Source: Escherichia coli (GTDB lineage Bacteria > Pseudomonadota > Gammaproteobacteria > Enterobacterales > Enterobacteriaceae). From it: a DNA stretch of 45,913 nucleotides. Numbering within the stretch: the first letter of the stretch is position 1; the number at the start of each line of letters is the position of its first letter. This document shows positions 5,552 to 45,913 of this stretch, in pieces. Under the pieces are notes generated by a model. The model was not told where the DNA came from. It was given only the letters and a program-made list of their open reading frames with translations, and did no database searches. The stretch lies in the NCBI RefSeq assembly GCF_003334785.1, contig NZ_QOWV01000023.1; one strand, given 5' to 3'. The translations under genes were made by a program, and so were the position numbers.

Positions 5552-5660
5552 TGCCGGATGCGGCGTGAACGCCTTATCCAGCCTACAAATTTGTGCAAAT
5601 TCAATAAATTGCAGGAAATACGTAGGCCTGATAAGACGCGTCAAGCGTCGCATCAGGCAT
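5552..5660. repeat. REP/BIME repetitive extragenic palindromes between convergent phr and dtpD
   Basis: GCCGGATGCGGCGTGAACGCCTTATCCAGCCTACA and GTAGGCCTGATAAGACGCGTCAAGCGTCGCATCAGGCA are canonical E. coli REP units. Confidence 0.75.
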
Positions 5661-23005: not shown

Positions 23006-23126
23006 CCGTAGGCCTGATAAGACGCGCAAGCGTCGCATCAGGCAACCAGTGCCGGATGCGGCGTGAACGCCTTATCCGGCCTACAAGTCATTACCCGTAG
23101 GCCTGATAAGCGCAGCGCATCAGGCG
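23006..23126. repeat. REP/BIME cluster (three REP units) between sdhB and sucA
   Basis: CCGTAGGCCTGATAAGACGCGCAAGCGTCGCATCAGGCA, GCCGGATGCGGCGTGAACGCCTTATCCGGCCTACA and CCGTAGGCCTGATAAGCGCAGCGCATCAGGCG. Confidence 0.75.
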
Positions 23127-26120: not shown

Positions 26121-27338
26121 ATGAGTAGCGTAGATATTCTGGTCCCTGACCTGCCTGAATCCGTAGCCGATGCCACCGTCGCAACCTGGCATAAAAAACC
26201 CGGCGACGCAGTCGTACGTGATGAAGTGCTGGTAGAAATCGAAACTGACAAAGTGGTACTGGAAGTACCGGCATCAGCAGACGGCATTCTGGATGCGGTT
26301 CTGGAAGATGAAGGTACAACGGTAACGTCTCGTCAGATCCTTGGTCGCCTGCGTGAAGGCAACAGCGCCGGTAAAGAAACCAGCGCCAAATCTGAAGAGA
26401 AAGCGTCCACTCCGGCGCAACGCCAGCAGGCGTCTCTGGAAGAGCAAAACAACGATGCGTTAAGCCCGGCGATCCGTCGCCTGCTGGCTGAACACAATCT
26501 CGACGCCAGCGCCATTAAAGGCACCGGTGTGGGTGGTCGTCTGACTCGTGAAGATGTGGAAAAACATCTGGCGAAAGCCCCGGCGAAAGAGTCTGCTCCG
26601 GCAGCGGCTGCTCCGGCGGCGCAACCGGCTCTGGCTGCACGTAGTGAAAAACGTGTCCCGATGACTCGCCTGCGTAAGCGTGTGGCAGAGCGTCTGCTGG
26701 AAGCGAAAAACTCCACCGCCATGCTGACCACGTTCAACGAAGTCAACATGAAGCCGATTATGGATCTGCGTAAGCAGTACGGTGAAGCGTTTGAAAAACG
26801 CCACGGCATCCGTCTGGGCTTTATGTCCTTCTACGTGAAAGCGGTGGTTGAAGCCCTGAAACGTTACCCGGAAGTGAACGCTTCTATCGACGGCGATGAC
26901 GTGGTTTACCACAACTATTTCGACGTCAGCATGGCGGTTTCTACGCCGCGCGGCCTGGTGACGCCGGTTCTGCGTGATGTCGATACCCTCGGCATGGCAG
27001 ACATCGAGAAGAAAATCAAAGAGCTGGCAGTCAAAGGCCGTGACGGCAAGCTGACCGTTGAAGATCTGACCGGTGGTAACTTCACCATCACCAACGGTGG
27101 TGTGTTCGGTTCCCTGATGTCTACGCCGATCATCAACCCGCCGCAGAGCGCAATTCTGGGTATGCACGCTATCAAAGATCGTCCGATGGCGGTGAATGGT
27201 CAGGTTGAGATCCTGCCGATGATGTACCTGGCGCTGTCCTACGATCACCGTCTGATCGATGGTCGCGAATCCGTGGGCTTCCTGGTAACGATCAAAGAGT
27301 TGCTGGAAGATCCGACGCGTCTGCTGCTGGACGTGTAG
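26121..27338 (+). CDS. sucB: Dihydrolipoyllysine-residue succinyltransferase (E2 of 2-oxoglutarate dehydrogenase)
   Basis: 405-aa ORF with lipoyl domain (...ETDKVVLEV...) and Ala/Pro-rich linker. Confidence 0.97.
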
Positions 27339-27360
27339 TAGTTTAAGTTTCACCTGCACT

Positions 27361-27625
27361 GTAGACCGGATAAGGCATTATCGCCTTCTCCGGCAATTGA
27401 AGCCTGATGCGACGCTGACGCGTCTTATCAGGCCTACGGGACCACCAATGTAGGTCGGATAAGGCGCTAGCGCCGCATCCGACAAGCGATGCCTGATGTG
27501 ACGGTTAACGTGTCTTATCAGGCCTACGGGGACCACCAATGTAGGTCGGATAAGGCGCAAGCGCCGCATCCGACAAGCGATGCCTGATGTGACGTTTAAC
27601 GTGTCTTATCAGGCCTACGGGTGAC
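27361..27625. repeat. Tandem BIME array of REP pairs: ~90-bp unit, ~2.4 copies
   Basis: Units at 27402-27490, 27491-27581 and partial 27582-27621, each GCCTGATG(C/T)GACG...GTCTTATCAGGCCTACGGG...CCACCAATGTAGGTCGGATAAGGCGC.AGCGCCGCATCCGACAAGCGAT. Confidence 0.8.
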
Positions 27626-27703
27626 CGACAATGCCCGGAAGCGATACGAAATATTCGGTCTACGGTTTAAAAGATAACGATTACTGAAGGATGGACAGAA
27701 CAC

Positions 27704-28870
27704 ATGAACTTACATGAATATCAGGCAAAACAACTTTTTGCCCGCTATGGCTTACCAGCACCGGTGGGTTATGCCTGTACTACTCCGCGCGAAGCAGAAG
27801 AAGCCGCTTCAAAAATCGGTGCCGGTCCGTGGGTAGTGAAATGTCAGGTTCACGCTGGTGGCCGCGGTAAAGCGGGCGGTGTGAAAGTTGTAAACAGCAA
27901 AGAAGACATCCGTGCTTTTGCAGAAAACTGGCTGGGCAAGCGTCTGGTAACGTATCAAACAGATGCCAATGGCCAACCGGTTAACCAGATTCTGGTTGAA
28001 GCAGCGACCGATATCGCTAAAGAGCTGTATCTCGGTGCCGTTGTTGACCGTAGTTCCCGTCGTGTGGTCTTTATGGCCTCCACCGAAGGCGGCGTGGAAA
28101 TCGAAAAAGTGGCGGAAGAAACTCCGCACCTGATCCATAAAGTTGCGCTTGATCCGCTGACTGGCCCGATGCCGTATCAGGGACGCGAGCTGGCGTTCAA
28201 ACTGGGTCTGGAAGGTAAACTGGTTCAGCAGTTCACCAAAATCTTCATGGGCCTGGCGACCATTTTCCTGGAGCGCGACCTGGCGTTGATCGAAATCAAC
28301 CCGCTGGTCATCACCAAACAGGGCGATCTGATTTGCCTCGACGGCAAACTGGGCGCTGACGGCAACGCACTGTTCCGCCAGCCTGATCTGCGCGAAATGC
28401 GTGACCAGTCGCAGGAAGATCCGCGTGAAGCACAGGCTGCACAGTGGGAACTGAACTACGTTGCGCTGGACGGTAACATCGGTTGTATGGTTAACGGCGC
28501 AGGTCTGGCGATGGGTACGATGGACATCGTTAAACTGCACGGCGGCGAACCGGCTAACTTCCTTGACGTTGGCGGCGGCGCAACCAAAGAACGTGTAACC
28601 GAAGCGTTCAAAATCATCCTCTCTGACGACAAAGTGAAAGCCGTTCTGGTTAACATCTTCGGCGGTATCGTTCGTTGCGACCTGATCGCTGACGGTATCA
28701 TCGGCGCGGTAGCAGAAGTGGGTGTTAACGTACCGGTCGTGGTACGTCTGGAAGGTAACAACGCCGAACTCGGCGCGAAGAAACTGGCTGACAGCGGCCT
28801 GAATATTATTGCAGCAAAAGGTCTGACGGATGCAGCTCAGCAGGTTGTTGCCGCAGTGGAGGGGAAATAA
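27704..28870 (+). CDS. sucC: Succinyl-CoA synthetase beta subunit
   Basis: 388-aa ORF ([18 protein letters not shown]...), stop overlaps sucD start (TAATG). Confidence 0.97.
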
Positions 28871-43732: not shown

Positions 43733-44278
<546 letters not shown>

Positions 44279-44287
44279 GAGAATTGC

Positions 44288-45079
44288 ATGAGCAGTAACT
44301 TCAGACATCAACTATTGAGTCTGTCGTTACTGGTTGGTATAGCGGCCCCCTGGGCCGCTTTTGCTCAGGCACCAATCAGTAGTGTCGGCTCAGGCTCGGT
44401 CGAAGACCGCGTCACTCAACTTGAGCGTATTTCTAATGCTCACAGCCAGCTTTTAACCCAACTCCAGCAACAACTTTCTGATAATCAATCCGATATTGAT
44501 TCCCTGCGTGGTCAGATTCAGGAAAATCAGTATCAACTGAATCAGGTCGTGGAGCGGCAAAAGCAGATCCTGTTGCAGATCGACAGCCTCAGCAGCGGTG
44601 GTGCAGCGGCGCAATCAACCAGCGGCGATCAAAGCGGTGCGGCGGCATCAACGACGCCGACAGCTGATGCTGGTACTGCGAATGCTGGCGCGCCGGTGAA
44701 AAGCGGTAATGCAAACACGGATTACAATGCAGCTATTGCGCTGGTGCAGGATAAATCCCGCCAGGATGACGCAATGGTGGCATTTCAGAATTTCATCAAA
44801 AATTACCCTGATTCAACTTACCTGCCAAACGCCAATTATTGGCTGGGTCAGTTAAACTACAACAAGGGTAAAAAAGATGATGCGGCGTACTATTTTGCTT
44901 CGGTAGTGAAAAACTATCCGAAGTCACCAAAGGCTGCAGATGCGATGTTTAAAGTCGGCGTCATCATGCAGGACAAAGGTGACACCGCAAAAGCGAAAGC
45001 CGTATACCAGCAGGTTATCAGTAAATACCCTGGTACTGATGGCGCTAAACAGGCACAAAAACGTCTGAACGCGATGTAA
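44288..45079 (+). CDS. cpoB: Cell-division coordinator CpoB (TPR-repeat periplasmic protein)
   Basis: 263-aa ORF with signal peptide, coiled-coil and C-terminal TPR-like repeats; formerly ybgF. Confidence 0.93.
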   Translation: MSSNFRHQLLSLSLLVGIAAPWAAFAQAPISSVGSGSVEDRVTQLERISNAHSQLLTQLQQQLSDNQSDIDSLRGQIQENQYQLNQVVERQKQILLQIDSLSSGGAAAQSTSGDQSGAAASTTPTADAGTANAGAPVKSGNANTDYNAAIALVQDKSRQDDAMVAFQNFIKNYPDSTYLPNANYWLGQLNYNKGKKDDAAYYFASVVKNYPKSPKAADAMFKVGVIMQDKGDTAKAKAVYQQVISKYPGTDGAKQAQKRLNAM

Positions 45080-45243: not shown

Positions 45244-45319
45244 GGGTCGTTAGCTCAGTTGGTAGAGCAGTTGACTTTTAATCAATTGGTCGCAGGTTCG
45301 AATCCTGCACGACCCACCA
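45244..45319 (+). tRNA. lysT: tRNA-Lys (anticodon UUU)
   Basis: 76-nt GGGTCGTTAGCTCAGTTGGTAGAGCAGTTGACTTTTAATCAATTGGTCGCAGGTTCGAATCCTGCACGACCCACCA, CCA encoded. Confidence 0.95.
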
Positions 45320-45454
45320 ATCGCTAAGGTGGAAGCGGTAGTAAAACGTGAAGGATAACGTTGCATGAGCAACGGCCCGAAGGGCGAGACGAAGTCGAGT
45401 CATCCTGCACGACCCACCACTAACATAGTTAGTTGTAGTATCCAGCGTAGTATC

Positions 45455-45530
45455 GGGTGATTAGCTCAGCTGGGAGAGCACCTCCCTTACAAGGAGGGGG
45501 TCGGCGGTTCGATCCCGTCATCACCCACCA
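45455..45530 (+). tRNA. valT: tRNA-Val (anticodon UAC)
   Basis: 76-nt GGGTGATTAGCTCAGCTGGGAGAGCACCTCCCTTACAAGGAGGGGGTCGGCGGTTCGATCCCGTCATCACCCACCA. Confidence 0.95.
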
Positions 45531-45533
45531 CTC

Positions 45534-45609
45534 GGGTCGTTAGCTCAGTTGGTAGAGCAGTTGACTTTTAATCAATTGGTCGCAGGTTCGAATCCTGCAC
45601 GACCCACCA
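45534..45609 (+). tRNA. lysW: tRNA-Lys (anticodon UUU)
   Basis: Identical 76-nt tRNA-Lys sequence, 3 nt after valT. Confidence 0.95.
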
Positions 45610-45758
45610 GTTTTAACATCGAAGACAGATGTTAAGCGTGTAGGATAACGTTGCGTCAGCAACGGCCCGTAGGGCGAGCGAAGCGAGTCATCCTGCACGA
45701 CCCACCACTAATGACGGTGGGTTCGGTGGAAGTAGTTTGTAGTATCCAGCGCAGTATC

Positions 45759-45834
45759 GGGTGATTAGCTCAGCTGGGAGAGCACCTCCCTTACAAGGAG
45801 GGGGTCGGCGGTTCGATCCCGTCATCACCCACCA
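45759..45834 (+). tRNA. valZ: tRNA-Val (anticodon UAC)
   Basis: Identical 76-nt tRNA-Val sequence. Confidence 0.95.
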
Positions 45835-45837
45835 CTC

Positions 45838-45913
45838 GGGTCGTTAGCTCAGTTGGTAGAGCAGTTGACTTTTAATCAATTGGTCGCAGGTTCGAATCCT
45901 GCACGACCCACCA
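45838..45913 (+). tRNA. lysY: tRNA-Lys (anticodon UUU); ends exactly at the window edge
   Basis: Identical 76-nt tRNA-Lys sequence ending in CCA at 45911-45913. Confidence 0.9.

Follow-up and report, generated by a model that had tools for sequence, protein, structure and literature searches.

Locus and Gene Context

In the Escherichia coli chromosome analyzed here, the genes sucB and sucC are separated by a spacer filled with repeats, which raises the questions of what kind of element this is, how the number of its units changes from one strain to another and what it may do to the transcript that carries it. The window, i.e., the whole stretch of 45,913 nt that was analyzed, is E. coli chromosome (100% identical to strain 300709 over the tested part); its gene content comprises gltA, sdhCDAB, sucABCD, mngRAB, cydAB, tol-pal, and a tRNA-Lys/Val cluster. 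The preliminary description of this DNA had placed the array inside an operon, in a spacer of 365 bp, and both statements hold: the array lies within the sdhCDAB-sucABCD cluster, the last position of sucB is 27338 and the first of sucC is 27704. The array is wholly extragenic, overlapping neither coding sequence, and its surroundings are as follows.

26121..27338, + strand: sucB (odhB), E2o subunit of 2-oxoglutarate dehydrogenase (ORF list; RefSeq annotation of the 100%-identical strain 300709)
27664..27703, + strand: sucC leader, with the Shine-Dalgarno sequence AAGGA at about 27687-27691 (allele alignment; outgroup spacers)
27704..28870, + strand: sucC, beta subunit of succinyl-CoA synthetase (ORF list; RefSeq annotation of strain 300709)

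Two in-frame stops, TAG TAG (27336-27341), close sucB and are kept in all the aligned E. coli alleles as well as in E. albertii; on the other side, the sucC leader is unchanged across all the E. coli alleles compared. Another, shorter repeat is found in the interior of sucB, where the 15-bp sequence CTGCTCCGGCAGCGG occurs in 1.9 tandem copies (26593-26621), probably in the part that encodes the Ala/Pro-rich linker between domains of E2o. Further away in the window, Rfam matches correspond to the CpoB/ybgF thermometer (44179-44317, 142 bits) and to two RtT repeats in the tRNA-Lys/Val cluster (45244-45910; 58.8 and 54.9 bits), all of which are expected for these regions.

Anatomy of the Array

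Tandem Repeats Finder delimits the array at 27360-27633, with a period of 91, 3.0 copies, 87% matches, and a score of 385; the figure of about 2.4 copies given in the preliminary description was, thus, too low. The periodicity of about 90 bp announced there is real, as the self-identity of the whole spacer at lag 91 reaches 0.47, whereas no lag in any of 2000 shuffles exceeded 0.386. As for the small number of substitutions said to separate the copies, it applies to units 2 and 3, which differ by two substitutions and one indel (an extra G in the linker) and are 98% identical in an ungapped comparison of 27438-27528 with 27529-27619, but not to unit 1, which is only about 75% identical to units 2 and 3 and whose Y half is strongly diverged.

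In order to locate individual REP sequences, we searched the window for the REP-tail pattern TTATCNGNCCTAC with one mismatch allowed, and obtained 11 matches against 0.43 expected. Six of them fall in the spacer, on alternating strands: 27361 (−), 27425 (+), 27450 (−), 27515 (+), 27541 (−), and 27606 (+). Moreover, the 37-nt Z2 consensus is present at 27491-27527 and 27582-27618, with one mismatch in each case. The earlier view of a tandemly amplified BIME made of paired REPs is, therefore, borne out by these six alternating tails and by the Z2 matches. Each unit opens with a Y-type REP, whose GTAG foot is on the + strand; a head-to-head linker of 7 nt separates it from a Z2-type REP that terminates in CTAC, and a tail-to-tail linker of 11-12 nt follows. 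The Y elements carry GTAGGTCGGATAAGGCGC...GCGCCGCATCCGAC. The dissection of the spacer is given below.

27358..27372, + strand: left arm of the outer inverted repeat, ACTGTAGACCGGATA, which is the foot of the first REP (inverted-repeat search; allele alignment; outgroup spacers)
27360..27394, + strand: unit 1, diverged Y-type REP, GTAG foot on the + strand (REP tail 27361-27373 on the − strand; hairpin of −16.4 kcal/mol)
27395-27401: unit 1, head-to-head linker AATTGAA
27402..27437, + strand: unit 1, Z2-type REP, CTAC end (REP tail 27425-27437 on the + strand; hairpin of −21.6 kcal/mol)
27438..27448, + strand: short tail-to-tail linker between units 1 and 2, GGGACCACCAA (unit dissection)
27449..27483, + strand: unit 2, Y-type REP (REP tail 27450-27462 on the − strand; hairpin of −18.8 kcal/mol)
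27484-27490: unit 2, head-to-head linker AAGCGAT
27491..27527, + strand: unit 2, Z2-type REP (Z2 consensus with 1 mismatch; Rfam naRNA4 at 27453-27524, 59.5 bits)
27528..27539, + strand: short tail-to-tail linker between units 2 and 3, GGGGACCACCAA (unit dissection; repeat comparison)
27540..27574, + strand: unit 3, Y-type REP (REP tail 27541-27553 on the − strand; hairpin of −18.8 kcal/mol)
27582..27618, + strand: unit 3, Z2-type REP (Z2 pattern; Rfam naRNA4 at 27544-27615, 59.8 bits)
27619..27663, + strand: degenerate REP-like remnant, which ends in TCGGTCTAC and carries the outer right arm, 27652-27666 (sequence reading; pairing)

The linker between units 2 and 3 has one G more than that between units 1 and 2, hence the periods of 90 and 91 bp; these tail-to-tail linkers would be of the “s” type in the Bachellier scheme. 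The two outer arms, 27358-27372 and 27652-27666, pair with each other at 87% complementarity. The foot of the first REP is kept in the E. coli alleles devoid of BIME, and a similar GTAG foot is found at the same position in related species.

The predicted fold of the spacer RNA has an energy of −161 kcal/mol (z = −8.6). Each of the six REP hairpins contributes from −15 to −22 kcal/mol, all of them with internal mismatches, and the degenerate remnant folds weakly (−9.6 kcal/mol). A 63-codon ORF predicted on the − strand (27378-27569) was discarded as a gene: it lies wholly inside the palindromic repeats and is almost certainly a by-product of them.

Assignment to the BIME-2 Class

BIME-2 elements consist of y and z2 REPs in tandem, with a short S linker, copies that are conserved within a locus, and a number of copies that varies from strain to strain (Ton-Hoang et al. 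2012, PMC3333891). The sucB-sucC array is a BIME-2 of three tandem units, each of them an inverted pair of Y and Z2 REPs. Indeed, its elements are imperfect palindromes of about 35-40 nt with a GTAG/CTAC foot, and REPs of this kind are dispersed, a 565-nt query matching a median of 8 places per genome across 5,426 genomes. The Y and Z2 REPs alternate in inverted orientation, they are joined by 7 nt head-to-head and by 11-12 nt tail-to-tail without any long L linker, and the tandem arrangement is seen in the 3.0 copies, in the 98% identity of units 2 and 3, and in the existence of strain alleles of 0-3 units. With the BIME-2 family of Gilson, Bachellier, and Hofnung, the array, thus, shares the Y/Z2 alternation, the short linkers, and the tandem, conserved copies in variable number, along with the GTAG/CTAC feet and mismatched stems; we see no essential difference, the diverged Y of unit 1, the closing degenerate remnant, and the observed ceiling of three units being local details. 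One has to keep in mind that the RefSeq record NC_000913.3 bears only the sucB and sucC CDSs at the K-12 site, with no REP annotation, and the assignment is, therefore, based on sequence patterns and on structure.

BIME-1 (RIP) elements are also built from inverted pairs of REP palindromes, but they combine Y with Z1 around a long L linker that holds an IHF site, and they occur in single copy. The sucB-sucC array differs from them by its Z2 REPs, its short linkers, its tandem units, and the lack of an IHF consensus: its REPs have the length of Z2 (36-37 nt), its linkers measure 7-12 nt, no Z1 REP was found in the spacer by pattern search or unit dissection, and no match to WATCAANNNNTTR is present there. 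In BIME-1, it is the long L linker that provides the IHF site (Ton-Hoang et al. 2012, PMC3333891), and the binding of IHF proposed in the preliminary description was, therefore, a property of the wrong class; judged by its sequence, the array is no IHF site. That suggestion of IHF binding was also what favored the reading of the spacer as a regulatory DNA site for sucCD, either an internal promoter or an IHF-bound BIME-1. We find this reading barely conceivable and reject it at the sequence level, as a promoter search of 27000-28000 gave no sigma-70-like site, and the spacer lacks an IHF consensus, a Z1 REP, and a long L linker.

Another reading comes from Rfam, whose family RF02564 (naRNA4) matches units 1, 2, and 3 on the + strand with 56.4, 59.5, and 59.8 bits; units 2 and 3 reach the gathering score of 59.5, and unit 1 remains below it. 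Taken at face value, such matches at or just under the gathering score would make the array a source of naRNA4-like noncoding RNAs associated with the nucleoid and condensing the chromosome with HU. This is very improbable, since the Rfam model was built on one BIME-2 unit of REP325, so that the match merely restates BIME-2 homology; the − strand of the array scores too, albeit more weakly (33-50 bits), and neither REP325 nor naRNA4 affects nucleoid compaction (Harris et al. 2026 preprint).

Besides the array, REP sequences were observed at two other sites of the window. The sdhB-sucA spacer (23008-23109) contains a second BIME with three REP tails (−, +, −), whose naRNA4 match on the − strand (23011-23081, 88.4 bits) exceeds those of the sucB-sucC units; this spacer is regarded as an sRNA target region in the GlnZ paper. 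A further REP pair at 5574-5658, with an exact Z2 consensus on the − strand (5622-5658), overlaps a match to the Rfam sRNA ES036 (CssrF) at 5587-5629 (75.1 bits), and ES036 is probably another “sRNA” family derived from REPs.

Copy Number among E. coli Genomes

The prediction that the copy number would vary between strains proved right: among 5,426 complete E. coli genomes, the site holds 0, 1, 2, or 3 units. The BIME-less allele was detected with an allele-specific 71-nt probe (coverage of at least 80%, single-copy per genome) and is found in 3,402 of the 5,426 genomes (63%), while a BIME is present in 2,011-2,022 of them. The split by unit number was estimated from two systematic samples, both evenly spaced along the ranked matches and mutually consistent. 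The first (40 rows) comprises 8 three-unit alleles at 99.8-100% identity to the window, 1 divergent three-unit allele, 5 two-unit alleles, 1 albertii-like allele, and 24 without units; the second (60 rows) comprises 12 three-unit, 9 two-unit, 1 albertii-like, and 37 without units. This amounts to about 20% of genomes with three units, about 13-15% with two, and 63% with none, many two-unit genomes being K-12 laboratory derivatives. One-unit alleles are rare: a synthetic one-unit probe has exact matches in at least 6 genomes and near matches in a few others. No allele of four or more units surfaced with five-unit probes of two haplotype types, whose best 25 and best 40 matches were all three-unit. 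We discarded a count of 803 three-unit genomes obtained from a coverage threshold on the five-unit probe, as it departs from the figure of about 1,090 given by both systematic samples and is sensitive to how BLAST joins pieces.

The orthologous site of K-12 MG1655 (NC_000913.3, 762740-763013) has identical flanks and an identical unit 1, and the whole of unit 3 of the window (27540-27618) recurs unchanged as the second K-12 unit. K-12 has two units in a 274-bp spacer, and the additional unit of the window is unit 2. Since K-12 carries the array in this two-unit form, both the family and its occurrence at this locus are already known.

In the majority allele, 14 nt link the foot CTGTAGACCG to the foot TCGGTCTACGG, in a spacer of 93 bp. 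The resulting hairpin, GTAGACCGAC-gtggatagggt-GTCGGTCTAC, measures 31 nt, with a perfect 10-bp stem and a folding energy of −21.5 kcal/mol; in strain CX21 it occupies positions 271-301 of locus L002, a site that corresponds to 27362-27663 of the window, and it is single-copy in the genome. The 14-nt center of this short allele could not be traced to the long alleles, with which it shares only similarities of 5-8 nt (GGGTG, GACCGAC).

Haplotype Families and Unit Turnover

The sequenced examples fall into four haplotype families.

Family W: the window (3 units), K-12 (2 units), SCU-104 (1 unit)
Family C: 3CM and Z1322 (3 units), LHM10-1 (1 unit)
Family G: GN02270 and MZ1211 (2 units)
Family D: DEF2 and EC67 (2 units, the second Z2 being internally deleted)

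Within W, the cores of units 2 and 3 show 2 differences, and within C they show 4, to be compared with 7-9 between W and C at the same position; the tail-to-tail linkers are also specific to the haplotype family. As paralogous units of one array are more alike than orthologous positions of different families, either independent duplications or conversion within the array is required, and contraction to unit 1 alone is seen in both W and C. The preliminary description had deduced a recent amplification or gene conversion: amplification or conversion stands, for the reason just given, and “recent” does not. Indeed, the two differences that distinguish unit 2 from unit 3 are shared by 8/8 sampled rows at 99.8-100% identity to the window, which scales to about 1,090 genomes, and the W duplication is not recent at the strain level.

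The spacer of family D differs from that of E. albertii at 5 of 261 positions, whereas the adjacent sucC of D-type genomes is E. coli-like and differs from that of E. albertii at 11 of 240 positions. These sequences suggest for the D haplotype either an ancient polymorphism common to both species or the import of a short tract by recombination.

Across E. coli lineages, the length of the array changes by whole units of 90/91 bp, 0, 1, 2, or 3 of them being present. Gain and loss of units would occur by slipped-strand events or unequal recombination between the near-identical 91-bp direct repeats, possibly with the help of the REP-associated transposase TnpA-REP (RAYT). Slippage or unequal exchange is, we infer, the simplest account, and amplification by TnpA-REP is the alternative: in vitro, the enzyme cuts and rejoins other BIMEs, and models of amplification have been put forward (Ton-Hoang et al. 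2012, PMC3333891). The array resembles the REPIN/RAYT systems (Bertels & Rainey; Nunvar et al. 2010) in its inverted REP doublets, its long persistence at a fixed locus, and its changing number; no RAYT gene is present in the 45,913-nt window.

This turnover could also be all there is to explain, the array being a selfish or neutral passenger of the REPIN/BIME kind, resized by the transposase and by slippage, whose copy differences are drift without any selected effect on suc expression. Several observations go in this direction, namely, the free segregation of 0-3 units with a majority allele devoid of array, the recurrent expansion and contraction in different haplotypes, and the activity of TnpA-REP on BIMEs mentioned above. 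We consider a pure passenger possible but on the unlikely side, on account of what the neighboring species retain at this position and of the strong effects measured for the related array REP325 on its neighboring genes.

An Old Hairpin Slot after sucB

We scanned species-representative genomes using a degenerate sucB 3′ end as a pattern, and recovered 114 loci, among which 110 spacers could be measured. E. coli itself, E. fergusonii, E. marmotae, and S. enterica subsp. enterica were not among the loci recovered; the polarity of change within Escherichia is, therefore, read from E. albertii only. Across the 110 enterobacterial species, the sucB-sucC spacer measures 69-152 bp, except in E. albertii (261 bp, two units), and multi-unit arrays were found only in E. 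coli and E. albertii.

The spacers have in common a slot bounded by CACCTGC...GTAG on one side and CTAC...GGTTTAAAGATAACGATTAC on the other, the filling of which differs by species. A single BIME with its feet outward is found in Salmonella arizonae and diarizonae, Citrobacter youngae, and C. amalonaticus, and a single REP-like hairpin in the sampled spacers of Klebsiella oxytoca, Enterobacter mori, and Trabulsiella guamensis; in more distant genera, the slot holds a GC-rich hairpin that is not a REP. In the C. freundii group (four loci), a collapsed 28-nt hairpin, GTAGGTCTGGACGCCTTATCAGGCCTAC, occupies the position of the BIME of C. youngae and Salmonella arizonae, a collapse that is independent of, and parallel to, the short allele of E. 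coli. Overall, 77% of the 110 spacers fold at z < −2 relative to shuffles, with a median z of −2.7.

A structured element directly after sucB is, thus, old, widespread, and older than the genus, and only its content turns over; the E. coli array sits in this old hairpin slot, between conserved GTAG...CTAC feet. Such constancy does not fit well with a mere passenger: a stable hairpin stays at the exact slot after collapse, in the short allele of E. coli as in the C. freundii group, and a significantly structured spacer in 77% of 110 species argues for some selection on structure.

Possible Role in the sdh-suc Transcript

The joint best explanation, to which we give a probability of roughly 0.8, combines the BIME-2 identity of the array, the turnover of its units, a role of the transcribed repeats as RNA barrier and attenuator, and a likely gyrase site. 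In the sdhCDAB-sucABCD transcript, the six REP hairpins would block 3′-to-5′ exonucleases and, thus, shield the upstream sucAB message, and they would also attenuate read-through into sucCD in a leaky manner that depends partly on Rho. The number of units would then tune the sucAB:sucCD ratio, more units having a stronger effect. Cunningham and Guest (1998) are said to have described extensive processing of the sdh-suc read-through transcript.

That the array likely acts as a 3′-exonuclease barrier and leaky terminator between sucAB and sucCD is inferred from the homologous REP325 array and from classical REP work. REP325, located between yjdM and yjdN, is likewise a BIME-2 array of alternating Z2 and Y elements between co-transcribed genes, with units homologous to ours (Rfam 56-60 bits). 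It differs by its 12 palindromic units, against 6 at sucB-sucC, and by the fact that its role as a terminator and stabilizer was measured. In the yjdMN operon, the yjdM/yjdN (upstream/downstream) ratio of mRNAs is about 35 and falls to about 1 once these 12 alternating Z2/Y units are deleted; the upstream mRNA is stabilized by REP325, termination is partly Rho-dependent, and a ladder of hairpin-ended RNAs is produced (Harris et al. 2026 preprint). The same work reports that REP effects depend on the context and that half-lives are not uniformly lengthened.

Several features of the locus restrict what the array may do. Any termination must be weak, because the operon has to supply SucCD as well. 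No intrinsic terminator (GC-rich stem followed by a T-run) was found inside the array, and a single weak terminator match at the sucB stop (27321-27341) is at the chance level, with 0.7 expected. The extra units are not essential, given that 63% of E. coli genomes have no array, but these same genomes keep the hairpin of −21.5 kcal/mol. Finally, Liang, Rudd, and Deutscher (2015) reportedly observed effects on translation for REPs located no more than about 15 nt from the stop codon; such a mechanism is unlikely here, as the first REP stem begins about 27 nt past the sucB stop.

The array is also likely a DNA gyrase site, by analogy with other BIME-2 elements, which gyrase cleaves in vivo according to the work of Espeli & Boccard (1997) as related in PMC3333891. 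The gyrase binding and the effect on mRNA stability put forward in the preliminary description would, thus, both apply by virtue of the class. One may go further and suppose that the array acts mainly at the DNA level, removing the positive supercoils generated by sdh-suc transcription, a proposal that is compatible with a role of the RNA. Its BIME-2 architecture, the gyrase cleavage just cited, and its location in a highly transcribed operon would suit such a function; most E. coli and all the sampled species except E. albertii, though, do without a tandem array, having no BIME or at most one unit, and we hold a mainly DNA-level function to be rather improbable. The combined explanation, in which a gyrase site comes in addition to the RNA barrier, remains our preferred one.

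Significance

The array is already known and ordinary for E. coli. REP/BIME arrays, their Y/Z2 design, their copy variation among strains, and their roles as stabilizers, attenuators, or gyrase sites have long been established, and early suc sequencing papers as well as Stern et al. 1984 are said to have noted REPs at sucB-sucC. Our full-text literature search returned nothing specific on REPs at this site, and a preprint on sucAB/sucCD in UPEC does not discuss the spacer. The present additions are a census at one locus and a conserved hairpin slot, which are tidy and unsurprising.

Beyond this, the slot might be a selectively maintained regulatory dial, whose long-lived alleles (bare hairpin or 1-3 units) set a lineage-specific SucAB:SucCD stoichiometry. 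We regard this as improbable; if true, it would represent natural cis-regulatory variation in the TCA cycle among E. coli lineages. More generally, if the sucAB:sucCD ratio is indeed tuned by the number of units, the alleles found in nature would offer a ready series for the effect of REP dosage on expression.
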